Shown here in pieces: positions 3,262-36,500 of a stretch of DNA of 64,000 nucleotides. The translations under genes and the position numbers were made by a program. The stretch covers positions 536-64,535 of the forward strand of contig CAZIAH010000002.1 in assembly GCA_964537715.1 (NCBI GenBank), written 5' to 3'. The notes under the pieces are model-generated. The model ran no database searches. It saw nothing but the letters and a program-made list of their open reading frames with translations, and was not told the origin of the DNA. Positions within the stretch are counted from its first letter, which is position 1. Each line of letters starts with the position of its first letter. The stretch is from an uncultured bacterium (GTDB lineage Bacteria > Zhuqueibacterota > QNDG01 > DSAB01).

Positions 3262-3278
3262 ATTGATTGGAAAGATGG

Positions 3279-3397
3279 GGAACGGGGAAAGTGGAACGGG
3301 GAACGCATAATGGAGACGGGAGAACGGAAATCGGAGAAAGGGAAAAAGATAAAGGAGAAAGGGAAAAGACAAAGGATAAAGAATAAAGAATAAAATA
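3279..3397. repeat. Degenerate purine-rich heptamer array between convergent genes
   Basis: About 16 consecutive 7-mers: GGAACGG GGAAAGT GGAACGG GGAACGC ATAATGG AGACGGG AGAACGG AAATCGG AGAAAGG GAAAAAG ATAAAGG AGAAAGG GAAAAGA CAAAGGA TAAAGAA TAAAGAA. Confidence 0.7.
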
Positions 3398-8983: not shown

Positions 8984-9055
8984 TCCGGAGTAGCTCAATG
9001 GTAGAGCGGGTGGCTGTTAACCACTAGGTTGGGGGTTCGAGACCCTCCTCCGGAG
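8984..9055 (+). tRNA. tRNA-Asn: tRNA-Asn (GTT), CCA not encoded
   Basis: Acceptor stem TCCGGAG/CTCCGGA; D-arm TAGCTCAATGGTAGAGC; anticodon arm GGTGG-CT GTT AA-CCACT; T-loop GGTTCGA; discriminator G followed by CAA. Confidence 0.97.
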
Positions 9056-9064
9056 CAAAAATAG

Positions 9065-9091
9065 AGGTCCAAAATAGGTTGGGCCTTTTTT
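9065..9091 (+). terminator. Intrinsic terminator after tRNA-Asn
   Basis: AGGTCCAA-aatagg-TTGGGCCT then a T run. Confidence 0.7.
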
Positions 9092-9552
9092 GTTTATATC
9101 GGAATCTAAACCTAGGACGCTTCCAACTCTGAAGATTGCATTATCGGGGTGGTAAAAAAGATCAACAACGATTTTCCTCTCGCTTTTCGGCTTGGTAGCC
9201 TTCGACTACCTGTGCGTGAATTTCAAACTAAAATTCCCCATTTTTTTTACTTTAAAATTCCACAATTATGGGAATCTATCCCTTTGGGAAAAGAAAAAAA
9301 TTATTTCATATTATTTGCTACTACACTTAAAAAAGACTTTTTTCTATCTTTTAAGCGATAGCCCAAATTTGGTCCGATTTTAAAAACACTTCAATGATTT
9401 TCCAATTGAAAAGATTTGATCCAAAAATGTACCCAAATTATAATTTTTTTATTTTTCTTATTTACTATAAGTCCTTTCAATAGGTTTTATGTTTTATATT
9501 CAATAATTATTACTGAAAAAATCAGGAAAACTGACCATTAAATAAAAAAACC

Positions 9553-9581
9553 TTGCATTTTAATTAAATATATTGTATAAT
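9553..9581 (+). promoter_or_regulatory. Sigma-70-type promoter for the precursor peptide
   Basis: TTGCAT (9553-9558) - 17 nt - TATAAT (9576-9581). Confidence 0.7.
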
Positions 9582-9750
9582 ATAAAGAGATAGTACATTT
9601 CATGGACGAACAGTAAAAAAAGGACTTCTTAAACCTCATTAATTCGGCGTCTTTTGTTATAATTTCAATTGCTTCCGATGGGATTGGCTACATTGATTGT
9701 AAATGGTTGATTGGAAAGTTTTTCTAATAATTTTTAAAAGGAGAGAAATT

Positions 9751-10038
9751 ATGGAAGAAAGAAAATCACCAAAATCAAAAGTGGAATCCACATTTGATTT
9801 TAAAAGTTCAATCGAAAAAGACGATGCTTTGGTCTTGGAACTATTAGATAGTCCAATTAAGACTCTGAAAAATCGTGACATCAGATGTGATCAAGAGATG
9901 ATCAACAATCTAAACAAGGTTCGAAATAATGTTCTTGATCGCGCCAGGGCTGCATTTATTGAATCCGGTATCGCTAAAACTAGCCTTATGGGTTGTATGG
10001 GCTGTATGGGCTGTATGGGATGTTCTGATATAATGTAG
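9751..10038 (+). CDS. Putative RiPP precursor, 95 aa, C-terminal (MGC)4-SDIM core
   Basis: RBS AAAAGGAG before ATG 9751 (the ORF track starts at 9703); charged, helical-looking leader, then MGCMGCMGCMGCSDIM*; directly upstream of an rSAM/SPASM gene. Confidence 0.8.
   Translation: MEERKSPKSKVESTFDFKSSIEKDDALVLELLDSPIKTLKNRDIRCDQEMINNLNKVRNNVLDRARAAFIESGIAKTSLMGCMGCMGCMGCSDIM
9988..10023 (+). repeat. 4 x 9-bp coding repeat (ATG GGN TGT)
   Basis: atgggttgt atgggctgt atgggctgt atgggatgt; variation occurs only at the Gly wobble base. Confidence 0.95.
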
Positions 10039-10099
10039 AAAGAAATCATCCAATTTAGCCAGCAAATATCTTCACATCCAAACAATTGGAAGTTTTACA

Positions 10100-10153
10100 T
10101 ACTTAGAATTATCACAGCAAGAGGTTTATTAACTCTTGCAGTAGTTCTAAGTA
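10100..10153 (+). other. Intergenic stem-loop between precursor and rSAM genes
   Basis: TACTTAGAATT...GCAAGAG / CTCTTGC...AGTTCTAAGTA; no downstream U-tract. Confidence 0.6.
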
Positions 10154-10197
10154 ACTAGATATTATTGTATTTAGAGAATGAAAATAAAGCATAAAAA

Positions 10198-11283
10198 TTG
10201 AAAAATATCATTACTCCCATCCTCGCCCAATGGGATGTCACAAAAGGATGTAATTTTTCCTGCCCTTTTTGTTTGTCAAGTAGCGGGAAACGATCTCAAA
10301 ATGAACTAAGTTTTAAACAGGCACGTGCTATAATAGATAAATTGCACTCAAGCGGAGTTTTATTTCTTAGATTCCTTGGGGGAGAACCATTTTTTCGAAA
10401 AGATATGCTAGAAGTGATGCGATATGTTGCCGACAAGGGGATGCTTATGGTTTTTAGTACAAACGGTTCTCTGGTTACCGAGGAAACTGCTAAAACACTG
10501 AAAGAAATTCATGAAAATATCAGCTATTTCCAAATTAGTCTTTATGGGACCAATCAACATTATTATCAGGAATTTACTACTAATTCAAAGAGTTTTGATT
10601 TAGTTGAAAAAGGTATCAGCTTTTTGAAAAAATTCGATTTAAATCCTTATATATTTTGGGTATTAACAGAAAAAAATATTAACCAACTTGAAGCAGCATA
10701 CCAACTCACAAGAAAATGGGAATTACCTGTACTTAGAATTTCATTGAAACTCCATCTTGGCAGAGGAAAAATTAATTACAATAATAATTCTGAGAGAAAA
10801 CCAAACTTATGGGCTCAGGCGATTGAAACACTTCTATCTCTAAAAAGCCTCGTAGACAAGCATAAAACACCAAGAGTGGAATTACATGCCAGACCTCTTT
10901 TAGGTAAATATTTATATAAACATGTCGGACTACCTTTCTTTTATATCCCTTGCAAAGCGGCAAAAACCATGTTGTATGTAGATTCAGAGGGTAAATGTAG
11001 CCCATGTCCATTTGGATATTTCATGCCAGAATCATATTGTTCATACTTGAATTTAAAAGGAACTGCCTTGAGTTTATTAGATTATGAAGTAAAAGATATT
11101 TGGCAATCAGAATTGTTCGAAACCTATAGAAATCTTCACGATCCAAAATTACATCCAAAGAAAATAAATAAGAATTGTCCACATTACAAGGCTGGGATTT
11201 GTGCGCCATGTATTTTTACACCATGTCTCTGTAATTCAACAATAAAAATGATAAACGAAACAAGAATGGAAAAAATTCAATAA
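10198..11283 (+). CDS. Radical SAM protein with SPASM-like C-terminal domain (putative peptide maturase)
   Basis: WDVTKGCNFSCPFC (CxxxCxxC), FLGGEPFFR, STNGSL, QISLYG; C-terminal IPC...VDSEGKCSPC and CPHYKAGICAPC...CLC. TTG start. Confidence 0.9.
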   Translation: MKNIITPILAQWDVTKGCNFSCPFCLSSSGKRSQNELSFKQARAIIDKLHSSGVLFLRFLGGEPFFRKDMLEVMRYVADKGMLMVFSTNGSLVTEETAKTLKEIHENISYFQISLYGTNQHYYQEFTTNSKSFDLVEKGISFLKKFDLNPYIFWVLTEKNINQLEAAYQLTRKWELPVLRISLKLHLGRGKINYNNNSERKPNLWAQAIETLLSLKSLVDKHKTPRVELHARPLLGKYLYKHVGLPFFYIPCKAAKTMLYVDSEGKCSPCPFGYFMPESYCSYLNLKGTALSLLDYEVKDIWQSELFETYRNLHDPKLHPKKINKNCPHYKAGICAPCIFTPCLCNSTIKMINETRMEKIQ

Positions 11284-11703
11284 GTGCCGAATTTATGAAT
11301 TAAATAACAATTGAGGATACAGGATCACTCTCATAATATAATTTGATCAAAAGTGGTTATATTAAGCAAATTTTGAAAGGTGGAGTATCAATATATTTAT
11401 ATACTAAAATTAAACTGTACTAATCGAAATAGTCATTAATTGAATTGATAGGTGATTCATTACACCAATATTAATCGATCATCCATTTTCTAAGTAGTGG
11501 TAACGGTACCCTCCGTCTGTAGAATAGAGAGGATCACATGGAATTTTAGCATCATCTAAAATTCATACCAAAGCTTTTCTTACCAATCGTCTTTTCCTAG
11601 AAAGAATAAAAATAGCAATTTAAAAAATCTTATTAAGAATAATTTCTAGATTTATCTTTAAACTTCTATTAGATTTCTATAAAATAGTACTAAGGAGCAT
11701 TTT

Positions 11704-13572
11704 ATGACGGAACTGATCCCAAGAAAATTATTGTTTGGTAATCCTGAGAAAATCGGAATCAAAATATCACCTGATGGAAAATGGATATCCTATCTGGCAC
11801 CATCAAAAAAAAATGTTTTAAATATATGGGTGCAAAAGATAGGAGAAAATAAAGCGGAAATGGTTACGCAGGATGAGTATCGGGGTATCCGTATGTATGC
11901 GTGGTCTTATAAAAAAGATACAATTCTCTATCAACAGGATCAGCACGGAAACGAAGACTGGCACCTTTATATTACTAATATTCAAACCAAAGAAACAATG
12001 AATGCCACTCCGTTTAAAGGAGTCCGTGTACAGAATATAATAATACACAAAGATTTTCCGGATTTTATATATATAGGATTGAACAAACTTAATCCTGAAC
12101 TTTTTGATATCTATAAACTGGATCTTCAATCACTTGATATTTCTCTAAATATAAAAAATTGGGGAAATGTTCTAGCCTGGGGGAAAGACCATAATTTTGT
12201 TGTTCGTACAGCTTCTGGTATAGATCCAGCTACTGGTGAACATATTATTTACGTCCGGGAGAATGAAGCAGAATCATTCAGAGAGTTACTACGTGTACCA
12301 TTTTATGAAGAAATTTATGTTTTGGAATTTACAGAAGACAATAAAAACCTCTATTTTCTTTCTTCCCTTGATGCGAATACTATCGGCATAGTGGAAACGG
12401 ATTTTTACTCAGGTAAAACAATCCGTGAAATAGTCAGACATCCAAAAGCGGATATAAGTAATACGATTGTGCATCCGGTTACTCATGTTATACAGGCTGT
12501 AGCCAGTAATTACTTAAAAAGGGAATGGCAATTTTTTGATAAAGAAGTGGAAAAAAATTTTAAAATATTTAATAGTATAGGAGACGGTAATGTACATCTT
12601 GTTTCAAGAGATAATAATGATATAATATGGATCATCGCTTATGAATCAGATACAACTCCTGTGAAATACTATTCATTTGATAAACAGACTGGTAAACTCA
12701 CATTTCTTTTTGACAGTCAGCCCAAACTCAATCCATACAATTACGTTAAGATAAAGCCTATTATTATTAAAGCATCGGATGGCATGGAATTAGTTTCTTA
12801 TCTTACTGTCCCTGATAGAGAAGGTCCTAATCCGCTGGTATTATTAGTCCATGGTGGTCCATGGTCCAGGGATTTATGGGGATGGGTTGCTTCTGTTCAA
12901 TGGCTAGCTAACAGAGGATATGCTGTGTTGCAGGTAAATTACCGTGGTTCCTCCGGTTTTGGTAAAGAATTCCTTAATGCAGGGAATAAAGAATGGGGAA
13001 CCGGTAAAATGCAACAGGACTTAACAGGTGCCGTAAACTGGGCCATTAATGAGAATATTGCCCTTCCAGATAAAATAGCAATATTTGGCTACAGCTACGG
13101 AGGGTATGCTGTATTGGCAGGATTGGCATTTACACCGGATCTCTACTGCTGCGGTGTGGATGTAGTCGGTCCGTCCAATCTTAAAACTCTTATTAAGAGT
13201 ATACCTCCTTACTGGAAGCCGGCTAAAAAAAATATATTATTGCGTATTGGTGATGTGGAAAAAGATTCAGAGTATAATAAAAAAATATCTCCTTTGTATC
13301 ATGCAGAAAAAATAAAAAAACCGCTTATTATTGCCCAGGGAGCGATTGATCCACGTGTGAAAAAAGATGAATCGGATCAAATAGTTAAGGCTATGCGAGC
13401 AAAAAGTATACCTGTAACCTATATAATTTTCCCAGATGAAGGCCATGGATTTGCCAGACCAGAAAACAGAATGGAATTTTATGCCCGGATAGAATCATTC
13501 TTGTTTAAACACCTGGGAGGAAGAACAGAACAATATACTCCTGTAAAAGGCTCAACAGCTGAGGACTTTTAG
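11704..13572 (+). CDS. S9 family peptidase (acylaminoacyl/dipeptidyl aminopeptidase-like), no signal peptide
   Basis: RBS AAGGAG; N-terminal propeller; LLVHGGPWSRD, GYSYGGY (Ser), AQGAIDPRV (Asp), DEGHGF (His). Confidence 0.93.
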   Translation: MTELIPRKLLFGNPEKIGIKISPDGKWISYLAPSKKNVLNIWVQKIGENKAEMVTQDEYRGIRMYAWSYKKDTILYQQDQHGNEDWHLYITNIQTKETMNATPFKGVRVQNIIIHKDFPDFIYIGLNKLNPELFDIYKLDLQSLDISLNIKNWGNVLAWGKDHNFVVRTASGIDPATGEHIIYVRENEAESFRELLRVPFYEEIYVLEFTEDNKNLYFLSSLDANTIGIVETDFYSGKTIREIVRHPKADISNTIVHPVTHVIQAVASNYLKREWQFFDKEVEKNFKIFNSIGDGNVHLVSRDNNDIIWIIAYESDTTPVKYYSFDKQTGKLTFLFDSQPKLNPYNYVKIKPIIIKASDGMELVSYLTVPDREGPNPLVLLVHGGPWSRDLWGWVASVQWLANRGYAVLQVNYRGSSGFGKEFLNAGNKEWGTGKMQQDLTGAVNWAINENIALPDKIAIFGYSYGGYAVLAGLAFTPDLYCCGVDVVGPSNLKTLIKSIPPYWKPAKKNILLRIGDVEKDSEYNKKISPLYHAEKIKKPLIIAQGAIDPRVKKDESDQIVKAMRAKSIPVTYIIFPDEGHGFARPENRMEFYARIESFLFKHLGGRTEQYTPVKGSTAEDF

Positions 13573-13653
13573 GGTAATTTATTATTAACTTGTCTATATC
13601 ATTATAGTAAAGGGAAATATGAATTTGTAGGGATTAATCTTTGATTCAGTTCT

Positions 13654-13800
13654 CTATCTATTCCTCATTAATGATAATCCATTTGCTTTGAGTTGTTTTA
13701 TCACTCCTATTATCTCTTGCTCTTTTTCGTTTTTAATTAATTTTCCATTTATAAAATTAAAGCCATATGGGATTTGACCTTTGTAACTTTTGGATTTTGA
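13654..13800 (-). pseudogene. Truncated serine recombinase (Recombinase-domain fragment)
   Basis: KGQIPYGFNFINGKLIKNEKEQEIIGVIKQLKANGLSL resembles the G..PYG(Y/F)...L..NE.E...I..I..L...G.SL signature. It stops immediately afterwards and has no catalytic N-terminal domain. Confidence 0.6.
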
Positions 13801-13897
13801 TTTTTTAATTTTTTGAGAATTCTTTAAATTCACATCATTGGTAAACAGAAGAGGAATAGTTCGAAAATTTAAGACATTGGGGAGCAAATATGACATT

Positions 13898-13927
13898 AAA
13901 CCGACCCAAAAGTAAGGTCGGTTTTTT
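13898..13927 (+). terminator. Terminator-like hairpin at the island's right edge
   Basis: AAACCGACC-caaaagtaa-GGTCGGTTT followed by TTT. Confidence 0.6.
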
Positions 13928-14221
13928 ATTGAAAAATGAAAAAGGGTACCGTTCAATTTAAAATTGTTTGTTATAGTCATATAAAAACGGTATTATCCAC
14001 GGAAGATTATCCAAAATATTTTACTTGCTATTTTATTCGAACCGCTTTAGATTAAATTAAATCCAGAGATTGATTTTCAAAAGCACTGCTTCACAGAATC
14101 CCGATTCTTATGGATAATCATACAGGGTGAATTGGGATATATCGGTTGCATCCACTGCATCCTGATTGTAATTATTATCTTGCATGTGATTGTAAAAATG
14201 GTTTTTATTAAGGAGTCTGAA

Positions 14222-24156: not shown

Positions 24157-24485
24157 GTTTGGAGTTTGCAAATCAATTGTTGCCGACTCTGAATTGAAGA
24201 TTAGTCCATTCAGTCCTTAAAAGAGTTGGTCTTTTAATTCTTTAATACAGTATTTCCCAAAGAGAAAACGGATCATTGTTTGATAACATAAAAATATCTT
24301 TTCCCGTAATTGTTAATTAAATAGTTATGTAATCTATATGTAATCGTTATTTTCTAAGATGAATACGATGTGTAATAAGTAAATGCATAAATAAGGTTCA
24401 TTTCTTTTTTACTCCTGAGGTGCTTAATTATGAGAATATCGAGGTAACGACAATCATTTCGAATTGCAAAATGGAGGAATACAGA

Positions 24486-27400
24486 ATGAAATTCGGGAGA
24501 TGTTTTAAGGAGAATTTTTTTATCGGAGTATGGATCGTTGTTTTTTTGTTATGTTTACACATTTCACCAGTTTTATCTCAGGTGGTTAACATTCCCGATG
24601 CAGTTGGGGATGTTGGGATTCCAGTTGATGCGACTATTCCTACACCGCCGGCCGGGACAATCAGCGGTTGGGACATGCAGCTTGTGAGATTGACTTACAA
24701 TTCTTCGACGGATGTGATGTCCGTGTTTATGGATTTTGACGGCATCGGAGGCGACGCGGATGATGACGGAGATCCCGGCGGAACAAGTGCCTGGCTCGCT
24801 GTCCGCGGCGGGACCGACCATGCCAATCTGAGCGGACCGGAAGCATTGTGTATTGGCTTTGATTCGGACAATGATTTCCAGGCCGAATTTGTGGTGGGTG
24901 TGAGCAACAGTACAAGCATGGATTTTAGTAATTTTGCAATTCATAATTGTAACGGAGCGGCGCTTTATTCGCCTCAGACCAGTGTTTTGTGGGGGACCAA
25001 AATTGCCGATATCACGGATGCAGCCTGGAGCTCGGGCGATCTTTCATTTACGATACCCAATTTTTCAACCATGCCGGGATTTTCTTTTACACCCGGCGAG
25101 AGTTTTACGGTACGGCTCATGGCTTTTGCCGGTTCCGATGATGATGACGGCATTGGTGAGGACAAAGTGCCCAATTCTCCGGGCGAGGTGGATTTTTTTG
25201 CGGATTATGGGGATGCGCCGGCACCCTATCCTACTCTGAAAGCAGACAACGGCGCCTATCATGTAATCAATTACAGTCTCACACTGGGTGCGAGTATCGA
25301 CGGTGAAGCCGACGGCCAGCCGAATGCTGGCGCCACCGGAGATGATATAGATGGCAATGACGATGAAGACGGTGTCACATTCCTGACCAATCTGGTGCGG
25401 AGTCAGCAGGCCACGGTCCGGGTGAATGCTTCGGCATCCGGAAAGTTGGATGCGTGGATCGATTTCAATGACGACGGGGACTGGGCAGATTCCGGGGAAA
25501 AAGTTTTCGACAATGTATCGGTCAGTTCTGGCAACAATGATCTGACGTTTACAGTGCCAGCAACAGCAACCATAACGACTCAAACGTTTTCCCGATTTCG
25601 TCTCAGCTCCGCAGGGGGATTGTCTTACACGGGAAAGGGCGATGACGGTGAAGTGGAAGATTACGCAGTAGAGATCCGGGACTATCTGGATTTCGGAGAT
25701 GCACCGGAAACCAATTATCCGACGACTCTGACGAACAACGGTCCGAGACATCAGATTCAATCCGGCGTCAGACTGGGAAGCAGCATTGACAATGAATTCG
25801 ACGGCCAGCCCAATTCTGGTGCGACCGGAGACGATATTGCCGGGATTGATGATGAAGACGGTGTGGCTTTTCCTTCGGGACTGGTTCAGGGAGCCAATTC
25901 CAGCGTCAATGTCACTGCTTCGGTCGCGGGATACCTTCACGCCTGGGTTGACTGGAACGATGATGGGGATTGGGATGATGCTGGCGAAAAAGTTTTCAAC
26001 AATCAGATACTTTCTCCGGGAGTGAACAATCTCTCAATCAGTGTTCCCTGGGATGCCCAGCTCGGGCAAACCTATTCCCGTTTTCGTTTTGTGACCGGTT
26101 CCACGCCGGGAATGGCTTATACCGGTTTGGCTTCCACGGGTGAGGTTGAAGATTATGTGGTGACCATTTCCGAGCAGATTGATTTTGGAGATGCACCCGA
26201 TCCGACCTATCCCACTTATCTGGCAAACGATGGCGCCCGGCACCGTATGGACGGATCGCACTTTCTGGGTTCTTCTGTGGATTCGGAAAGCGATGGCCAA
26301 CCTACATCTGGAGCAGATGGGGATGATACGGATGGAAATGATGATGAGGATGGTGTGACATTTACCTCCCAACTGGTTCCTGCACTGACAACCACTCTCA
26401 ATGTCAGTGCCAATGCGGCCGGTTTGCTCTCCGGCTGGGTCGATTTTAATCGGGACGGCGACTGGAACGATACGGGTGAACAGGTTTTCAATAACGAATC
26501 CCTCTCTGCAGGTGTCAATTCACTCAGTTTTGCTGTGCCATACGGTGCACAGTCCGGCGACACGTACGCCCGATTCCGTTTCAGCACAAACAGCGGCCTT
26601 TCGACGACCGGATACATAGACAATGGTGAAGTGGAAGATTATCTGGTCACGATTCAGCCGGGACGGGATTACGGAGACGCCCCAGATCCGGCCTATCCGA
26701 CGCTTTTGGCGAGTTCCGGTGCCTATCATACGATTTCGAGCGGATTCTATCTGGGCGGTTCCATTGATGCTGAAGCAGACGGACAACCGACGGTTGGGGC
26801 CGATGGCGATGATATAAATGGGATTGATGATGAGGATGGGGTGGTTTTCAACAGTACACTCAGGCCTTATCAATCGGCCTCCATTACGGTAACAGCTTCA
26901 CAGGCTGGTCAATTGGACGCTTGGATTGATTTCAATGACGATGGCGACTGGAATGATGCAAGCGAAAAGGTTTTCGATGATTATGCTTTGTCTGCAGGGT
27001 CCAATCCGCTCAGTTTTACGGTTCCTGGAACCGCTGTACCTACCAGTCAAACCTATGCCCGTTTCCGATTTAGCAGCGCGGGCGGATTGGGTGTGACTGG
27101 CGGTGCTTCCGACGGCGAAGTTGAGGATTATACACACGGCATCGGCGCAGCGCAGGATTTTGGAGATGCACCGGCAACTTATCCTGTGCTTTTGGCCGAT
27201 AACGGAGCACGGCACGATTTGGGTTCCGGATTGCGGTTCGGAGCCAGTGTCGATGGTGACCCGGATGGTCAGCCCACAACGGGGGCTACCGGCGATGATA
27301 CGGACGGGAATGACGATGAGGATGGTGTAAGTTTTGACACACCACTGGTCCAGTATCAGCAAGCACAAATTACGGTTAATGCTTCAGGTGCCGCAAGGCT

Positions 27401-30400
27401 CGATGCGTGGATCGATTACAACGATGACGGTGACTGGAACGATTCCGGTGAGAGAATTTTTAATAACCGTAGTTTGTCCGCTGGTAATAATGTGTTGAAT
27501 TTCACGGTTCCAGGGACGGCTACTGTGACGTCACAGACATACGCCCGTTTCCGCATTAGCAGCTCGGGCGGATTGTTTCCGAGCGGACAGGCCAGTGACG
27601 GAGAGGTGGAAGACTACGAAATCGAAATCGAAGTCGCCCAGGATTTTGGAGATGTGCCTGATCCGACTTATCCGGTTCTTCTTGCCAGTAACGGCGCGAG
27701 GCACACCATTGTCTCCGGATTCCGGCTTGGTGGGAGCATCGACGGTGAAGCCGATGGCCAGCCGAGTGCAGGAGCGACCGGGGATGATACAAACGGTACA
27801 GATGATGAAGATGGCGTCACATTACCCTCATCGATCGTTCCGGGCACCACAGCCTATGTCACCGTAAATGCTTCATCTGCGGGCAAACTGGATGCGTGGA
27901 TCGATTTTAATGATGACGGCGACTGGGGAGATACCAACGAAAAAATCTTCAACAATCTCGATGTCTCTGCCGGGGATAACAATCTTTCATTTTCGGTGCC
28001 TCTGTCTGCTTCGGCACCCTCTGCCACTTTTGCGCGGTTCCGTTTCAGTTCCACGGGAGGATTGGGTGTCACCGATCTGGCCAGCGACGGGGAAGTCGAA
28101 GATTATACAGTTAATATCGAAACGGCTTCGCCTTCGATTCATATTGAGAAAGCCACGGAAGGTCAGGACGCAGATTTGCCCACCGGACCCTTTATTCCTG
28201 TTGCCAACACTGTCCACTGGACGTATACGGTTACAAACACCGGAAATGTGCCTCTGGCAAGCGTGGCTGTAACGGATGACAACGGCACACCGGGTGTGCC
28301 GGGAGATGATTTTAATCCGACTTTTTTGGGTGGGGATACCAATGGCAACAGTTTGTTGGACACCTATGAAACCTGGAATTATCAGGCTCAGGGTGTGGCT
28401 GTTTCGGGTCAATATGGAAATGATGCTGATGTGCTTGGACGTTTTAACAGTATTCCGTATACCGATCATGATCCGAGTCATTATTTTGGTTATTATGCGG
28501 GAATACATATCGAAAAATCCACCAATGGACAGGATGCGGATGATCCCACCGGACCCCAGGTTCCTGTGAACAGTACGGTGACATGGGATTATACGGTGAC
28601 GAATCTGGGGAATGTCGGGTTGACCAATGTTTCCATAATGGATGACGCGGGTTCACCGGGAAATCCGGGAGATAATTTTAATCCGACTTTCATCGGAGGG
28701 AACATCGACGGGGATGACAGTTTGGATGTGAGCGAGACCTGGCTCTACCGGGCAACTGGATCAGCCGGTTCCGGCCAGTACGAGAATGTGGCTCTGGTTA
28801 CCGGCAGAGACCCGGGGAGTCACACTGTCTCGGATGACGATACCAGCCACTATTTTGGTTATTCAATGGGAATTCACATCGAAAAAGCCACGAATGGTGA
28901 GGATGCGGATGATCCGACCGGTCCGGCCATTCCTTTTGGCGATTCTGTGACCTGGACCTATGTAGTAACCAATACGGGAGCTGTTCCTCTGGGGAATGTT
29001 CAGGTAACAGACGATCAAGGAGTGTCAGTCTCTTTCCTCAATGGGGATAGCAATGCAAACGATAGCCTCGATGTGATCGAAACCTGGAATTATGAAGGTT
29101 CGGGTTCGGCCACGTGGGGTCAATATGCCAACCTCGGTAGTGTTCAGGGAACAGACTGGCAGGGCTATATGGCCAATGATGATGATTCGAGTCATTACAT
29201 CGGATATTATACGGGTTCTATCGGAGATTATGTCTGGATTGATAAAGATGAAGACAGTGTACAGGATGCGGACGAGTCGGGTATCCCAGATGTGGAATTA
29301 TGGCTCATTCAGGGAACGGATACACTTCGGAAGGATACCACGAATGCTGCGGGTATTTACGATTTCACCAATCTTCCGGTAGGGAATTACATTGTTGATG
29401 TGAACGAAGCGAGTCTGCCTGCTGATTTTTATCTGACGACCCACAATGAGCCGGATACGGTGGATCTGGCCATGGGAGAAGATTACAATGATGCCGATTT
29501 TGGTTATAGACCAAAAGGCGGCAGTATCGGTGATTACGTCTGGCACGATGCGGATGGTGAAGGAGATCAGGATCCCGGTGAGAAAGGGATTCCGAATGTG
29601 AAGGTGATACTGCGGAATGAAGCATGGGTTGTGATTAGAATGCTTTACACTAATAATACTGGTTATTACCGTTTCAGCAATCTGTATCCTGGGACCTATC
29701 GGGTCGAAGTCGATGAAACGACCCTGCCGGAAAGTTATGTCCGTACTTCTGCTGTCGATCGTTACACCATTGATCTTCAAGCGGGGGAAATTGTGTATTA
29801 TGCAGATTTTGGATATAAAGGTTCTCTCGGCAGTATTGGCGATTATGTCTGGTACGATGAAGACGGTGAGGGAGATCAGGATGAATCCAATGCCGGTATA
29901 CCGGATGTCGTTCTGAAACTCATTTTCGATAATACTGTGATAAAGACCGATACGACAGACGCGAACGGGGCATATGATTTCACCGGACTTGAGGCGGGTC
30001 TTTATGTTGTCGATGTAGAAGACAGCACGGTACCGGACTGGTATACTCTGACCACCCATAATGAGCCGGATACGATATTGCTGTCGATTGCCGAAGATTA
30101 TAACGATGCGGATTTCGGTTACCGGTTGAAACCGACCGGTTCCATTGGAGATTATGTCTGGGAGGACAAAAATCGTGACGGTAATCAGGACGGAGATGAG
30201 ACCGGATTGCCGGAAATTACGGTCGGTCTATTTGACACGCTGGGGACACTCTTGATGCTGGATTCCACGGATACCGGTGGCATGTATCTGTTTGAGGAGC
30301 TTCAGCCGGGTTTCTATGTGGTCGATGTTTATGCGGCTGACGAAGATATGCCCTCGAATTATGTCTGTACCACAAACAACGATCCTATGCGCGTGGAATT

Positions 30401-32534
30401 GAGTCAGGGCGAGGATTTTCTGGATGCCGATTTCGGTTTCATGGCTGCCGATTCTGGCGTCATCGGGAATTATACCTGGCACGATGAGAATTGGGATGCA
30501 AATCAGGACCCGTTCGAAACGCCTCTTTCTACGGTCAGAGTTTTTCTCTATCTGGATGATGTACTGATCGACAGTTTGCAGACCGACGGATTCGGACTCT
30601 ATTATTTTACCCATCTTCCACCGGGAGAGTATACCGTCAAGGCGAATCGGTATGTGCAGCTTCCGTCGGGCGGGTATCAAATTACGACTGTGGATTCCAT
30701 GCATGTCGCTCTGGCTGCCGGTGAGGTTTTTCTCGATGCCGATTTCGGATTTGCCTACCCCGAAGAGGACTGGGGTAGAGGACGGCGCTATCTGTTGGCC
30801 CGGTATCAGCCGTGGTACGGGGATGCGGAGAGCGATTCCACGCTTCGTCACTGGCTTCCCGATTATTATGGCGGCTATGCCGATACTTCCTTGTTTGACC
30901 GGTATGATTCCTACGATCCGTACATCTGGGAGTACCATATTCTCGCCGCCTGGGCCTGCGGTATCGACGGATTTGCCGTAGACTGGTATGGGAAGGATGT
31001 TTACGAAAATCCGGGGATAAACGGATTGCTCGATGAAGCGGATATTTTGTATCAAAAATACAATATCTTTGGCTTCAATTTTGAGATCGCGGCTTCCTAT
31101 AACGAAAAGGCATTCGGAGAGATGGAATTCAATTTCGAATATATCGGAGATTCCTTGATGACACATCCGGCATACTGGGGAACAAGACGGCAGGTGCGCC
31201 GACCGCTTTTTCTGTATAATACGGATGTTCCCATTTATACTCCGGCGGACTACAGTGTCTGTGCCGATACGACGCTGCCTTCGGATGTTTTTCTCCTTTG
31301 GAACGGAACCGAACCGGAATGTTTCGATCCAATCGATGTGTGTTATCCCTGGGTACAGCCTTTGAACGGTCAGTGGGATACCGAGGGTATGGAATGGGGC
31401 GAATCCTATATTGATACTACTTACTGGCGGGAGAATGAATTGCCCGATCCGGGTGATCTGCTCTTTGCGCTTGGGGGTGTCTGGCCCGGTTTTGACGACA
31501 GGGAATGGTCGTTGGGCGAGAACCATTGGATGAGCCGCCAGGACACTCTGGTCTACAATCTGACCTGGGAAAAAGTTTATAATTACGATTATCCGCTTCA
31601 AATGCCGTGGTGTCTCATCGAAACCTGGAACGATTTGAATCAGGCCACGGAAATCGAACCGAGTGTGGATTGGGATTACAAGTTCAATGTACTGACGAGA
31701 GATCATGCGAGACGGTTCAAAGGGTCCCTGCCTCCGGATTCCGTGGGCGTCAGTAATCTCGGGTTGCTTGTTCCCCAGCATATCCATCAGGCGAGAAGGG
31801 CTGGTGATTTGAGACCGGATGAACTCACGAATATCAATACATTGATCGATCAGGCACTTGGTCATTTCTTCAACAGAGATCATTTGAAAGCATTGTCGGT
31901 GGCCGATCAGGCAGCAGGGATTGCACCCAAACCGATTACCATCGTGTCGGTCGGGAATACTTCCGTTGAAATCTCCTGGGAAGCGGCAACGCATGCGAAC
32001 TGCTATCATGTCTATTATTCCGATGAACCATCCCATTTTGAACCATGCAGTTTTACCAAACCCAGGGTGGTTTCTGCTGGCGATGTGACCACTTATGTTT
32101 TGACCGGCCTGGTGCCGGAGACAGAGTATTGGGTGGCTGTGACTGCTGCAGATACTCTGCTTGGTCCTTATGCGAATGACAGCTGGTATGAGAATACTGT
32201 TACCGGTGCCGGAATCAAAACGTTTAAAACGACAGGAACAAGCAGTGTCGAAAACGGCTCCGGCATACCCAAGAAGTTCGCATTGTATCATAATTATCCG
32301 AATCCTTTCAATCCGGTTACGACCATTCGGTACGATCTGCCCAAGAATCAACATGTGAATCTGGTGCTGTTCGATATTCGGGGCAGGGAAGTCAAAAGAC
32401 TGGTCGATGAAGTTCAGAAAGCGGGTGTCTATACGATTCAACTGGATGGTGGTACGCTGCCGAGCGGCATTTATTTCTATCGTTTGACAACGGAAAAGTT
32501 TACCAAGGTCAGGAAAATGATGCTCCTTAAATAA
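24486..32534 (+). CDS. Giant secreted adhesin-like protein: 6 GEVED repeats, 3 DUF11/7507-like repeats, 5 SdrD-B repeats, GH99/GH71-like domain, FN3, CTD
   Basis: RBS GGAGG before ATG 24486 (track start 24420); signal peptide; DFGDAP...GEVEDY x6; IHIEK.T.GQDAD.PTGP...WTY.VTN.G x3; GSIGDYVW.D x5; LARYQPWYG...GIDGFAVDWY...VWPGFDD...ETWND; HNYPNPFNP CTD. Confidence 0.9.
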   Translation: MKFGRCFKENFFIGVWIVVFLLCLHISPVLSQVVNIPDAVGDVGIPVDATIPTPPAGTISGWDMQLVRLTYNSSTDVMSVFMDFDGIGGDADDDGDPGGTSAWLAVRGGTDHANLSGPEALCIGFDSDNDFQAEFVVGVSNSTSMDFSNFAIHNCNGAALYSPQTSVLWGTKIADITDAAWSSGDLSFTIPNFSTMPGFSFTPGESFTVRLMAFAGSDDDDGIGEDKVPNSPGEVDFFADYGDAPAPYPTLKADNGAYHVINYSLTLGASIDGEADGQPNAGATGDDIDGNDDEDGVTFLTNLVRSQQATVRVNASASGKLDAWIDFNDDGDWADSGEKVFDNVSVSSGNNDLTFTVPATATITTQTFSRFRLSSAGGLSYTGKGDDGEVEDYAVEIRDYLDFGDAPETNYPTTLTNNGPRHQIQSGVRLGSSIDNEFDGQPNSGATGDDIAGIDDEDGVAFPSGLVQGANSSVNVTASVAGYLHAWVDWNDDGDWDDAGEKVFNNQILSPGVNNLSISVPWDAQLGQTYSRFRFVTGSTPGMAYTGLASTGEVEDYVVTISEQIDFGDAPDPTYPTYLANDGARHRMDGSHFLGSSVDSESDGQPTSGADGDDTDGNDDEDGVTFTSQLVPALTTTLNVSANAAGLLSGWVDFNRDGDWNDTGEQVFNNESLSAGVNSLSFAVPYGAQSGDTYARFRFSTNSGLSTTGYIDNGEVEDYLVTIQPGRDYGDAPDPAYPTLLASSGAYHTISSGFYLGGSIDAEADGQPTVGADGDDINGIDDEDGVVFNSTLRPYQSASITVTASQAGQLDAWIDFNDDGDWNDASEKVFDDYALSAGSNPLSFTVPGTAVPTSQTYARFRFSSAGGLGVTGGASDGEVEDYTHGIGAAQDFGDAPATYPVLLADNGARHDLGSGLRFGASVDGDPDGQPTTGATGDDTDGNDDEDGVSFDTPLVQYQQAQITVNASGAARLDAWIDYNDDGDWNDSGERIFNNRSLSAGNNVLNFTVPGTATVTSQTYARFRISSSGGLFPSGQASDGEVEDYEIEIEVAQDFGDVPDPTYPVLLASNGARHTIVSGFRLGGSIDGEADGQPSAGATGDDTNGTDDEDGVTLPSSIVPGTTAYVTVNASSAGKLDAWIDFNDDGDWGDTNEKIFNNLDVSAGDNNLSFSVPLSASAPSATFARFRFSSTGGLGVTDLASDGEVEDYTVNIETASPSIHIEKATEGQDADLPTGPFIPVANTVHWTYTVTNTGNVPLASVAVTDDNGTPGVPGDDFNPTFLGGDTNGNSLLDTYETWNYQAQGVAVSGQYGNDADVLGRFNSIPYTDHDPSHYFGYYAGIHIEKSTNGQDADDPTGPQVPVNSTVTWDYTVTNLGNVGLTNVSIMDDAGSPGNPGDNFNPTFIGGNIDGDDSLDVSETWLYRATGSAGSGQYENVALVTGRDPGSHTVSDDDTSHYFGYSMGIHIEKATNGEDADDPTGPAIPFGDSVTWTYVVTNTGAVPLGNVQVTDDQGVSVSFLNGDSNANDSLDVIETWNYEGSGSATWGQYANLGSVQGTDWQGYMANDDDSSHYIGYYTGSIGDYVWIDKDEDSVQDADESGIPDVELWLIQGTDTLRKDTTNAAGIYDFTNLPVGNYIVDVNEASLPADFYLTTHNEPDTVDLAMGEDYNDADFGYRPKGGSIGDYVWHDADGEGDQDPGEKGIPNVKVILRNEAWVVIRMLYTNNTGYYRFSNLYPGTYRVEVDETTLPESYVRTSAVDRYTIDLQAGEIVYYADFGYKGSLGSIGDYVWYDEDGEGDQDESNAGIPDVVLKLIFDNTVIKTDTTDANGAYDFTGLEAGLYVVDVEDSTVPDWYTLTTHNEPDTILLSIAEDYNDADFGYRLKPTGSIGDYVWEDKNRDGNQDGDETGLPEITVGLFDTLGTLLMLDSTDTGGMYLFEELQPGFYVVDVYAADEDMPSNYVCTTNNDPMRVELSQGEDFLDADFGFMAADSGVIGNYTWHDENWDANQDPFETPLSTVRVFLYLDDVLIDSLQTDGFGLYYFTHLPPGEYTVKANRYVQLPSGGYQITTVDSMHVALAAGEVFLDADFGFAYPEEDWGRGRRYLLARYQPWYGDAESDSTLRHWLPDYYGGYADTSLFDRYDSYDPYIWEYHILAAWACGIDGFAVDWYGKDVYENPGINGLLDEADILYQKYNIFGFNFEIAASYNEKAFGEMEFNFEYIGDSLMTHPAYWGTRRQVRRPLFLYNTDVPIYTPADYSVCADTTLPSDVFLLWNGTEPECFDPIDVCYPWVQPLNGQWDTEGMEWGESYIDTTYWRENELPDPGDLLFALGGVWPGFDDREWSLGENHWMSRQDTLVYNLTWEKVYNYDYPLQMPWCLIETWNDLNQATEIEPSVDWDYKFNVLTRDHARRFKGSLPPDSVGVSNLGLLVPQHIHQARRAGDLRPDELTNINTLIDQALGHFFNRDHLKALSVADQAAGIAPKPITIVSVGNTSVEISWEAATHANCYHVYYSDEPSHFEPCSFTKPRVVSAGDVTTYVLTGLVPETEYWVAVTAADTLLGPYANDSWYENTVTGAGIKTFKTTGTSSVENGSGIPKKFALYHNYPNPFNPVTTIRYDLPKNQHVNLVLFDIRGREVKRLVDEVQKAGVYTIQLDGGTLPSGIYFYRLTTEKFTKVRKMMLLK

Positions 32535-33570: not shown

Positions 33571-36500
33571 ATGAAAAATAAGTGCTATTCTATCTATACA
33601 TATGTCTTTCTTTATATATTAATCTTTTTTTATTTCCCGATTAATTTATTGTCATATTCAAAGAATCGGCCGGTAGTAAAGGCCATGCCAAACCATTCGA
33701 TGGCAGTACGTTTCGATCCGTCCTATTATTATGATCGTGGTCAGGAAGTGAGTGAACTTTGTGAAACACTGGCTCAAAAATGGTCAGAGGCCGGTATCAA
33801 TCTTCTCTATATCAAAGTTTACGATCCTGTTTATGGAGCTGTTTATCATACTAATTATTCTTTGAATATTCAAACGGATTACGGCCGTCTGGATTTATTA
33901 AGTGCCATGATAAAATCATGTCATGAAAGGCATATTGCTGTATTTGCCTGGATACCAGCATTTCTGCACAAACAGGTCTGGGAGGCCCATCCTGAGTGGC
34001 GGATCAAAGACAAACAAGGGAATGACTATCAGACAGAAATGGAGCCTTATTTACTTTGCACGCGTCATCAAGGATTTCGTCAATGGTGGCTTGGATTCAT
34101 TGATGAACTGGCTGAAAATTATCCTGGACTTGATGGATTTGATATTGCAGAGCCGATTGTAACGTGGAAATATGATGAAGGCTGTTTTTGTGATCTATGT
34201 CAGAAGGCGTATGAAAATTATCTGGCAAACGGAGGTAGCAAATCGACTTTATATCAGGTCCGATCTAAATCCCTCCTTGAGATATTGGAAGAAACAATTC
34301 ATCGGATTCACAAGCATAGGAGAAAGGCCTCCATTACGACGGTCGTTTCAGCGTACAAGAATGGATTGATTTATTCTTCCGAGGAGCAGCGAATGTTGTC
34401 CGGTTTCGATCTGGACGGCATTTTGAATTCTACTCAAAAACCCGATATGATCAATACAGAATTGATCTGGCAGCAGTGGGCGGATGTTTTTCACGATAAA
34501 AAAATATTTACTCCCCGGTGGACCCGGGAAGCCGTGCGTCAGGTTCTTTCTCAAGTGAACGGGCGGGCCGATTTAATTGTTCATGTGGAAATCACGAATT
34601 TTGGAGGGGTGATCGTCAACCAGGATCAGGTTCTCGAGAGTATCACATCCGCATTTCAAGGAGGCGCAAAAGGCATCGACATTTATGATTCGCATCAGGC
34701 AGATGAACAGAATTTGTGGCCTGAATTGACTCGTGTTTTTAAAGCGGTTCCTAAAAAACAAGTGGTTGTCTATTATGATCCAGTGGGTGAAAATGATGCC
34801 AGACAGCTTAAAGTTCTTCTCAATCATTTTAATACAGAGAGCAAACTCATTCCTTTGGAAAAGTCCTTTTCTCCTTATCATGATGCAGAGATGGATGTGA
34901 TTTTTTATGTGGGTGTAGCCAATCGTTCTTCTCTGCCATCAAGGTTTCTTCGTTATATATCCAGAACTCATCATACAGTCTGCTGGATCAACTATAATCT
35001 GTTCTATCTGGGGCAAAAATATTTATCGAAACTGGGGTTTCAATATCAGGGTCAGGATGAAAGATCCCAATATGAAGTACAGTACAAAGGGGCTTGTTTT
35101 ACCAAACTGGATTCATCGATAAACATCATTCGGGTTGATAATCCGGATCAATGCCATGTCCTGGCACAGGTCAGAAAAGATAGCATCGAAGTTCCTTATA
35201 TCATTCAGAGCGGTCATTTTTGGTATGTGGCAGATCTTCCTCTGTCTTATGTGACAGAAGGAGGGCGGCATATTGTCTTTGCGGATTTGCTTCATGATAT
35301 CCTGAATGAAAATCATCAGGAACGGCATCTGGCCCTGGTCAGAATTGAGGATGTCAATCCCCAATCTTCCCCGGAGAGCCTTCGGGGGATTGCAGATTTC
35401 CTCAGTTCAAAAAATATACCTTTCTCAGTAGGACTCACACCCTTTTATCTGGATCCGTCGACCAACACAGCTGTTTCGCTTTCTGATCGGCCTGAATTGA
35501 CCGAGGCGTTGAGATACATGGTTTCTAAAGGCGGAACAATCGTATTGCATGGATGCACACACCAGTACCGTGGTCAGTCTTGTATTGATTATGAATTTTG
35601 GGATGGTATTGAAGATCGGCCTCTTTTTGAAGACTCAGAAGAATATGTCCGAAATCGTTTGGATAAAGCTCTGGATGAATGTCTTCATAACGGTATCTAT
35701 CCCTTGATATGGGAAACGCCCCATTATGCAGCTTCATTGTTTGATTATCGAATCATTAGTCAGTATTTCAGCACTTCATATGAGAGAAGGCAGACCTCGG
35801 ATGTTCTTGGAAGCGATCAGCTTCTTCCCTTTATTACCCGTTCTCTGTTTACCAATACATTGATCATTCCGGAAAATCTTGGATATATTCCTGTCGAGAA
35901 TCCTTCTCCGGAAAATGTGATCACAGCTGCCGAGAAAAATTTGGCTGTGAGAGATGGGTTTGCCAGCTTTTTCTTTCATCCATTTCTGGACCTAGAGATA
36001 CTCAAGGAGGCAGTAAAGAGAATCGAGAAATTGGGATATACTTTTGCCAATGTTCGTTCATTTAACAGTTGTGTTGCCGGTTCTTCCTGTTTTATTGCCA
36101 GCGGACAAAATGAAATGAAACTAGATTTAAATAGTCAATACTTTGAAGAATTTTACTTAACACATAACGGTAAGATCGAAAACCGTTATACCAGTGAAGC
36201 GAAATTGACCGAGCCAATTCATAAAATAGTAACCTGTCCTGCTGGCTGGATGTATATCGGACAGGCTTTAAAGACCAAAGAGGCAACATTTGTTCCCAGT
36301 GAGTGGAATTCTTTTTTAAAAGCACCCTTCAAAATAGGGAATCTTTGGCGAGCCGATCCGCTGGTCGGTATCAAAACGCCTGTCGTTCCTTTATTTATTA
36401 TTGATCTGGATGCACAGGGTGATGAGGCTGTCAGTCAGGAAAGTCTTTTAAAGACTTTTGAATCGGTGGGAATTGACTTTCAAACCACATCAGTTAAGAA

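Follow-up and report, generated by a model that had tools for sequence, protein, structure and literature searches.

Radical S-adenosylmethionine (SAM)/SPASM maturases have been a main source of new peptide chemistry, and several of the closest described systems for the locus studied here form thioethers at Cys residues. PapB makes one thioether per repeated CX3D motif, six in all (PMC10177961). SkfB joins a Cys to the C-alpha of Met12 (PMC6231123), QmpB forms 9-membered sactionine rings, and NxxcB forms a beta-thioether with an Asn lying upstream, with Ala, Gln and Asp also accepted (PMC9389541). In CteB, auxiliary cluster I is coordinated by three Cys ligands (C344, C362 and C413) and cluster II by four; PapB and Tte1186 follow the same 3+4 scheme, with the substrate Cys (as Sec) binding to cluster I (PMC10177961). 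Here, we describe a two-gene cassette in a 64-kb stretch of DNA from an uncultured bacterium of the Zhuqueibacterota (contig CAZIAH010000002.1; the whole stretch of 64,000 nucleotides is called the window below), in which the gene of a small peptide ending in a Met-Gly-Cys repeat is followed by that of a radical SAM/SPASM enzyme. The best explanation that we can offer, with a confidence just short of even, is that the repeat is the core of a ribosomally made precursor, matured by the adjacent enzyme with thioether rings.

The repeat was located at positions 9988-10023 of the plus strand, which read ATGGGTTGT ATGGGCTGT ATGGGCTGT ATGGGATGT and encode Met-Gly-Cys four times. It consists of four copies of ATGGGNTGT, and the third base of the Gly codon is the sole variable position between the units. 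The repeat, its location and its differences at the Gly wobble base only, as first described in the initial annotation, were all borne out by reading the sequence. Tandem Repeats Finder gave a period of 9, 4.1 copies, 92% matches and a score of 60 for this region. The pattern of three ATGGGNTGT units matched once in the whole window, at the repeat itself, and never in 100 window shuffles; the repeat exceeds chance expectation. It is followed by a C-terminal tail, Ser-Asp-Ile-Met (10024-10035), and by a stop codon ending at 10038.

This repeat is the C-terminal end of a 95-aa open reading frame (ORF) on the plus strand (9751-10038 with the stop codon, MEERK...IAKTSL-MGCMGCMGCMGC-SDIM), whose ATG at 9751 is preceded at a distance of 7 nt by a Shine-Dalgarno-like GGAG (9740-9743). 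The window peptide aligns over its full length with ORFs upstream of homologous radical SAM genes at 26 other loci and, because of this alignment and of the ribosome-binding site, the reading frame is taken to be the genuine one. A word-indexed protein search with the 95-aa peptide returned no matches, and its homologues were reached through the enzyme loci and through an exhaustive phmmer search, which among 1.84 billion representatives yielded 13 clusters of true homologues, every one sharing a single architecture. The peptide matches no Pfam or NCBIfam model. By exact look-up, with the starts as used here, the peptides of the window, of the Bacteroidetes metagenome-assembled genome (MAG82), of the Planctomycetota and of Prosthecochloris are absent from the protein collection; where public names are present, they are "hypothetical protein" for the peptide and "radical SAM protein" for the enzyme.

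The two genes are found together wherever this could be read. Loci were gathered by exact-protein look-ups, a scan of GTDB species genomes and a metagenome scan, and in all of the non-redundant loci with upstream DNA (27/27) a homologous peptide gene lies directly upstream of the enzyme gene and in the same orientation. When the ORFs of 18 loci were clustered all against all, the peptide and enzyme genes proved to be the sole ones in common, and the same two alone were shared when the closest relative's locus was compared with the whole window. In the 18-locus clustering, no protease, exporter or separate RiPP recognition element (RRE) gene was conserved (RiPP, a peptide made on the ribosome and modified after translation), nor was any metal transporter, chaperone or regulator conserved nearby. 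Judging by the record titles, the hosts are a Bacteroidetes MAG, Planctomycetota and Pirellulales, Prosthecochloris (labelled Chlorobi), three Nitrospirae, a Bradyrhizobium-binned contig and a Bathyarchaeota chromosome; the loci span six differently labelled phyla, one of them archaeal (Bathyarchaeota), and their neighbourhoods are otherwise unrelated. The cassette of the Bacteroidetes MAG is 82-83% identical to that of the window, and the window sequence recurs in sediment and cold-seep metagenomes. Generic sequence features of a radical SAM/SPASM RiPP system are found: a conserved adjacent precursor ORF, a CxxxCxxC motif together with SPASM Cys residues, and a conserved leader with a variable core. 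Peptide and enzyme very probably form a precursor/maturase pair, with the peptide as the substrate.

Several loci deviate from the simple layout. Locus L022 (918-2072) has three tandem precursor paralogues before one radical SAM gene, with the cores NACDACNACRACKAC, NGCNACNGCRACKAC and NACNGC. Two tandem leader domains precede a single core in L032 (328-879), L063 (6526-6930) and L064 (1379-1843), and in the proteins P0096 and P0098. In two distant loci, L061/L062 (8143-13849) and L064 (3380-9658), the cassette adjoins other biosynthetic genes, one set comprising ketoacyl synthase, FabA/ApeI-like and SDR genes and the other AMP-binding, TPP-enzyme, polyketide-cyclase and PP-binding genes; both sets run on the opposite strand and neither is conserved.

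The enzyme gene (10198-11283, plus strand) begins with a TTG start codon about 160 bp downstream of the precursor gene, on the same strand, and encodes a presumed maturase of 361 aa, recognized by its Pfam matches, its Cys motifs and its AlphaFold2 fold. The Pfam matches are Radical_SAM (72 bits), Fer4_12 and SPASM (22.7 bits against a cutoff of 21.5, which is borderline). The radical SAM motif is C18-x3-C22-x2-C25 and, since it starts at residue 18, the enzyme has no N-terminal RRE (PqqD-like) domain. The family alignment revealed seven invariant Cys residues in the C-terminal part (C252-x17-C270 and C327-x7-C335-x2-C338-x4-C343-x-C345), and the spacing C252-x17-C270 is identical to that of C344-x17-C362 in CteB. 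The seven Cys and the C-x17-C spacing suggest a match to the 3+4 scheme of CteB, PapB and Tte1186, a match that is not decisive as the ligands are not structurally assigned. A phmmer search of the PDB sequences with the SPASM part alone gave nothing usable for assigning the Cys ligands from an alignment with CteB or anSME.

The enzyme reaches no NCBIfam equivalog cutoff, and no Pfam or NCBIfam model specific to its family scores above its cutoff. The best match is MftC (114 bits against a cutoff of 265), and further matches below cutoff are AhbD, NirJ, the StsB family, WgkB, ScmE, PqqE, SkfB and AlbA. The sacti- and ranthisynthase models among these all fall below cutoff, with 90.7/625 bits for the StsB family, 49.3/300 for SkfB and 47.9/850 for AlbA. 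Because the sactisynthase StsB itself sits within the MftC similarity group (PMC10288494), the similarity to MftC does not predict a function. The enzyme family is a sharply bounded cluster of ~30 proteins scoring 183-843 bits, the next proteins being MftC-like and scoring <=111 bits. An AlphaFold2 model of the enzyme (predicted local distance difference test score, pLDDT, 87; predicted template-modelling score, pTM, 0.87) has SkfB, SuiB, BlsE, anSME, PqqE, ChlB and CteB as its best PDB fold matches, with template-modelling (TM) scores of about 0.6-0.66. SkfB is the best PDB match by profile as well as by fold. The fold match to ChlB was set aside, as ChlB/ChlA is a triceptide system and not relevant here. 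The model places the enzyme among the SPASM/twitch peptide maturases, with a fold that leaves the reaction unfixed.

Comparison of the cores showed what is constant in the repeat. The family core, located at the C-terminus or close to it, follows the pattern (X1-X2-Cys)n with n = 2-5, and the four Met-Gly-Cys units of the window are the local form of this motif. Among 40 distinct cores with 160 units, which are not phylogenetically independent counts, Cys occurs at every third residue throughout and is the sole universally conserved core residue; a single C-N-G-x-C was seen in two very distant members. In the close branch (15 peptides; 15 cores with 70 units), X1 is Gln in 58 units, Met in 11 and Asn in 1, and X2 is always Gly (70/70). 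In the distant branch (25 cores with 90 units), X1 is Asn (27), Asp (14), Gln (13), Arg (11), Lys (11) or Glu (10), with four others, and X2 is Ala in 36 units, Gly in 24 and varied in the remainder. X1 is polar or unbranched throughout and never beta-branched (Val, Ile or Thr in 0/160 units), and nearly all X1 residues (Q, M, N, D, E, K, R) have a beta-CH2 without a branch, whereas X2, usually small, is occasionally Val or Ile.

The emphasis that the initial annotation put on Met did not hold, as Met is not a defining residue of the repeat. Since close relatives carry Gln-Gly-Cys, Met is a lineage-specific substitute for Gln: the window and MAG82 have it in every unit, and planctomycete peptides in some of theirs (MGCQGC..., MGCMGCQGC...). 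Most relatives have Gln-Gly-Cys, and the X1 residues of the distant branch are those given above. A metal or Fe-S ligand, which had been proposed as an alternative and is compatible with the sequence, would rest on the periodic Cys and not on Met.

The tails vary family-wide (none, S, N, AQ, SSNIM, SAEIATM and others), and some family peptides terminate exactly at the last Cys. In the close branch, eight of the 15 peptides end in Met (SDIM, SSNIM, SAEIATM, SAEITTM, SSEVSMM and GSKHVMM; the loci include L008, L009-L011, L013 and L017), and others stop 1-2 residues past the last Cys.

The repeat had been proposed to be a selected peptide repeat rather than the result of fresh slippage. Selection was supported: the core and tail of the window and of MAG82 differ by 4 synonymous and 0 non-synonymous codon changes, and the units within a peptide differ at synonymous sites (Gly, Cys and Gln codons) in every lineage but MAG82. 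Because of these synonymous-only differences, the peptide is taken to be under purifying selection. Slippage contributes as well: the four units of MAG82 are identical in DNA and near-identical Nitrospirae leaders bear 3 or 5 units. The comparison of repeat number across homologues, proposed with the annotation, gave 2-5 units with a universal Cys periodicity, so that the homologues do retain the Cys repeat. Both conditions that the annotation had set for refuting its proposal, a lack of the repeat in homologues and an ORF neither transcribed nor translated, came out in favour of a selected peptide repeat, the second through the near-identical gene present in three metatranscriptomes. The same shifts in unit number between close relatives, and the identical units of MAG82, are what would be expected if the repeat were a recent product of replication slippage in a non-functional or non-coding stretch. 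This explanation is very improbable and is contradicted by the conservation data, since several bacterial phyla and an archaeon share the ORF, its leader and the periodic Cys, the unit differences are synonymous in all lineages but MAG82, the core shows no non-synonymous change between the window and MAG82, and RNA contigs exist.

These contigs come from three marine-sediment metatranscriptomes of one study, each with one contig of 190-201 nt, and they cover positions 9745-9983 at about 93-95% identity. They derive from a close relative, their variant positions mostly matching MAG82, so that it is the near-identical gene of a relative that was found among RNA sequences; at 80% likeness, nothing substantive was found over the radical SAM or S9 peptidase genes. 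The peptide gene is probably transcribed. The 159-nt spacer between the precursor and radical SAM genes contains a long stem-loop (10100-10153, plus strand), a candidate attenuator or transcript-stabilizing element; the RNA fold of 10036-10200 has a minimum free energy of -35 kcal/mol (z -4.65). Among the equivalent spacers long enough to fold, 9/13 have z <= -2.35, with no sequence conservation in the stem. The contigs and the hairpin fit a precursor transcript far more abundant than that of the enzyme, and an excess of precursor over enzyme transcript is usual in RiPP operons. Matching spacer hairpins were seen in L003, L008, L009, L010, L016, L019, L064 and L066 (z -2.35 to -5.55).

The leader comprises residues 1-79 (9751-9987, plus strand) and, judging by the AlphaFold2 model and by alignments, forms a predicted helical domain that weakly resembles the NHLP clan. 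AlphaFold2, given a 14-sequence alignment, placed helices at residues 17-23, 25-33, 35-41 and 48-80, with a block-mean pLDDT of 90-96 across roughly residues 21-70, and modelled the Cys-repeat core as disordered (pLDDT <50). The peptide alignments contain a conserved leader motif, K.D..(F)LL.L(L/I)(D/S)(D/S)P(I/V)K(T/A)(L/F), followed by RA..(F). When 14 peptides were scanned for the NHLP clan, 6 matched NF038399 (best E 8.6e-6) and 4/14 matched PF14407 (Frankia_peptide; best E 4.9e-5), both below cutoff; the best scores relative to cutoff were 25.4/40 bits for NF038399, 19.8/50.9 for TIGR03793 and 14.3/34 for TIGR04509. The NCBIfam matches shown in detail all lie in the common N-terminal part of the leader. 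Since every clan match is below its curated cutoff, the leader is called NHLP-like here, and not an NHLP member. Foldseek found no significant PDB match to the leader model. There is no Gly-Gly cleavage motif in the leader, and no C39-peptidase ABC exporter nearby.

The leaders of the close (Gln/Met-Gly-Cys) branch have an invariant Cys-Asp-Gln (Cys45-Asp46-Gln47 in the window, 9883-9891), and the same column reads Gly/Ala/Ser/Cys-Asp-Asp in distant relatives. This additional Cys might play a part in binding a cluster or in forming a disulfide.

A mechanism can be proposed for the pair. The leader would dock on the enzyme, which has no N-terminal RRE, and the thiolate of every Cys would coordinate the open iron site of auxiliary cluster I. 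The 5'-deoxyadenosyl radical would then take a hydrogen atom from X1 (i-2), which is Met in the window peptide and Gln, Asn, Asp, Glu, Lys or Arg in others, or, alternatively, from X2 (i-1), the small residue beside the Cys that is usually Gly or Ala. Capture of the carbon radical by sulfur would give one small, un-nested thioether ring per unit, four in the case of the window peptide. As several peptides end at the last Cys, the acceptor should be N-terminal to its Cys, if every Cys is cross-linked, and X1 is the best candidate since this position admits just those residues whose beta-methylene is unbranched. The X1 residues overlap the acceptors reported for NxxcB (Asn/Ala/Gln/Asp; PMC9389541) and PapB (Asp; PMC10177961), and a link from Cys to the C-alpha of residue i-2 would close a 9-membered ring, the size made by QmpB (PMC9389541). 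With no conserved protease or exporter and with a folded leader domain, the product may remain intracellular with its leader still in place, in which it would resemble SCIFF or QhpC. By analogy with the known enzymes, thioether formation with one ring per unit is the chemistry that we think most likely for this pair, although we give it somewhat less than an even chance.

The initial annotation had suggested a crosslink substrate, and this is plausible, is our leading reading and agrees with the constant presence of a radical SAM/SPASM enzyme as partner, the crosslink itself being a deduction. It had also argued that, with no Asp, Glu or Thr between the Cys residues, any bridge to Met or Gly carbons would be unusual chemistry. 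This argument applies to this lineage alone, and thioethers to Met and in small rings have precedents (PMC6231123, PMC9389541); in the light of SkfB, NxxcB, QmpB and PapB, a Met acceptor would not be exotic.

Several observations weigh against thioether formation or leave room for another reaction. The proposal comes from analogy and from residue patterns. The family scans place the enzyme no nearer to thioether synthases than to MftC, AhbD and NirJ, and SuiB, anSME, PqqE and BlsE match its fold about equally well. The RRE domain typical of sactisynthases is missing from the enzyme, its seven Cys could equally imply a non-Cys fourth ligand, as in PqqE, and a secreted natural product would typically come with a leader peptidase or exporter, neither of which is conserved here. 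The X1 pattern could stem from solubility or from the geometry of a metal site, the counts being phylogenetically non-independent. The RNA sequences are contigs, not reads, of low depth; they belong to a relative's genome and may include DNA carry-over.

With these points in mind, the pair could be a precursor and its maturase with a reaction other than thioether formation, in which most or all thiols would stay free and the product would bind Cu(I), Zn, Cd or an Fe-S cluster. Epimerization of X1, conversion of Cys to formylglycine or a thioaldehyde (as by anSME), C-terminal oxidative decarboxylation (as by MftC) or a C-C link could each be the reaction. MftC is indeed the best NCBIfam match, the fold fits of anSME, PqqE and SuiB equal that of CteB, some peptides end at the last Cys, which makes a C-terminal reaction conceivable, and Cys is the sole universal core residue. 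However, the 114 bits of MftC are far under its cutoff of 265, the window peptide lacks a C-terminal Val-Tyr, and the other NCBIfam models listed are likewise below cutoff. As to the metals, C-x-(G/A)-C resembles the metal-binding CxxC loops of Atx1/CopZ/MerP-type proteins, and the CxxC periodicity is compatible with metal binding. Set against this, metal binding gives no obvious need for the strict lack of beta-branched X1 residues, and among the neighbouring genes none for a metal transporter, chaperone or regulator is conserved. No significant match to metal-binding families was found in Pfam or NCBIfam, the sole entry of this kind being three peptides with E >=0.096 to PF12669 (FeoB-associated Cys-rich protein). 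Overall, we consider a non-thioether reaction with a metal-binding product unlikely, though worth keeping in view.

It is less likely still that the small protein is no substrate at all and serves, unmodified, as an Fe-S or electron carrier or as a scaffold for an enzyme acting elsewhere. Fe-S clusters can be bound by a CxxCxxCxxC sequence, the model of the leader shows a folded helical domain in place of a short disordered leader, and neither protease nor exporter is conserved, all of which would suit an accessory protein. A fixed [4Fe-4S] site is difficult to reconcile with the 2-5 Cys of close relatives and with the mere two Cys of some members, numbers too low and too variable for it. The tandem precursor paralogues of L022, with differing cores and one enzyme gene, and the duplicated leaders ahead of a single core also speak for a substrate, as does the variable core on a conserved NHLP-like leader, the typical layout of RiPP substrates. 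The preferred reading remains a precursor matured with thioether rings.

The surroundings of the cassette in the window were also inspected. A tRNA-Asn(GTT) gene (8984-9056) lies upstream of the precursor gene, and a terminator-like hairpin (9063-9088) just after the tRNA. The radical SAM gene is followed, 420 bp further on, by an S9 prolyl-oligopeptidase-family gene (11704-13572, plus strand; 622 aa, beta-propeller and Peptidase_S9), and then by an orphan ORF of 108 aa with no Pfam match (13654-13980, minus strand). From about 9100 to 14100, starting right after the tRNA-Asn and with the 108-aa ORF at its far end, a stretch holding the cassette, the S9 peptidase gene and the 108-aa ORF has a GC content of mostly 27-36% (0.41 in one sub-window) vs 44-47% in the flanks. 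This low-GC stretch looks like an acquired island; direct repeats flanking it were looked for and none were found. The S9 peptidase was considered as the leader protease and rejected as a component of the family, as no other locus has an S9 gene; it could be an accessory of this lineage alone, for instance a leader peptidase, or else a passenger with no link to the cassette. Elsewhere in the window, we observed a 495-bp tandem duplication (43882-44859; 2.0 copies, 81% matches) inside the ORF 42379-45234, purine-rich tandem repeats of 7 and 20 nt (3277-3394), and two very large plus-strand ORFs (24420-32534, 2704 aa; 33571-38598, 1675 aa).

Among described systems, the streptococcal RaS-RiPPs (QmpA/QmpB, GggA/GggB streptosactin and NxxcA/NxxcB) are likewise made by radical SAM/SPASM enzymes acting on a short conserved Cys motif. 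Their rings are small and un-nested (PMC9389541), and the N/Q/D-x-C units found here resemble NxxC minus one residue. No model of their enzyme families is among the 25 best NCBIfam matches of the window enzyme. The present family differs from them in its long helical NHLP-like leader, in its up to five tandem units and in lacking an shp/rgg quorum-sensing context, and its hosts are Gram-negative and archaeal sediment anaerobes.

With PapA/PapB (freyrasin) and with CteA/CteB and Tte1186a/Tte1186 (SCIFF/thermocellin), the cassette shares the repeat logic, the seven Cys of the SPASM region and the C-x17-C spacing, and it is like SCIFF in being a minimal peptide and radical SAM cassette whose exporter is not conserved. 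In contrast to PapB and CteB, the acceptor would precede the Cys in the chain, on its N-terminal side, and 2-3 residues instead of 5 would make up the ring; the N-terminal RRE domain of CteB and PapB is absent from the window enzyme, and no SCIFF model is among the matches listed.

RiPPs with NHLP/Nif11 leaders (proteusins, TIGR03793; Os1348, NF038399; PF14407) likewise have a helical leader of about 70-80 residues, and in several relatives of the window peptide the motif D..FLL.LIDDP.KA...YG aligns with the NHLP models. Partner enzymes of the NHLP clan work without an RRE. The known radical SAM enzymes of proteusins are epimerases or B12 methyltransferases and do not belong to the SPASM family of the window enzyme. 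Mycofactocin (MftA/MftB/MftC) is likewise made by a peptide and a SPASM radical SAM enzyme, with a probable intracellular product, but no MftB (RRE), MftD, MftE or MftF is adjacent here, and the peptide ends in ...GCSDIM and not in Val-Tyr.

No paper or curated model describing the pair was found, although atlases of radical SAM RiPPs may list the family anonymously in their supplements, and literature searches for QGCQGC, MGCMGC and similar strings returned solely DNA oligonucleotides or unrelated matches. We therefore regard the pair as an uncharacterized radical SAM RiPP family with a distinctive periodic-Cys core and an undescribed chemistry. It is compact, phylogenetically widespread and unnamed, and its hallmarks are an unusually simple core with a Cys at every third residue (2-5 units), an NHLP-type leader and an enzyme without the usual RRE. 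The X1 series Gln/Met/Asn/Asp/Glu/Lys/Arg constitutes a natural panel of substrate tolerance. The occurrence in sediment and groundwater anaerobes, including Bathyarchaeota, and without an exporter, makes a housekeeping or cofactor role possible rather than that of an antibiotic. The mature product might be, instead of a secreted natural product cleaved from its leader, an intracellular protein of ~10 kDa, in which a folded NHLP-like helical domain carries a short, enzymatically rigidified or thiolate-rich Cys-repeat tail and which would serve strict anaerobes as a carrier or as a cofactor for redox or metal functions; we consider this speculative and improbable. If true, such a leader-attached protein would be a new class of peptide-derived cofactor comparable to mycofactocin and SCIFF, made by a new SPASM branch that recognizes its substrate without an RRE. 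Taken with the systems above, the cassette would work like the small-ring sacti-/ranthipeptide and PapB/SCIFF systems but with an NHLP-like leader, and by the features compared it stands outside each of the named families.

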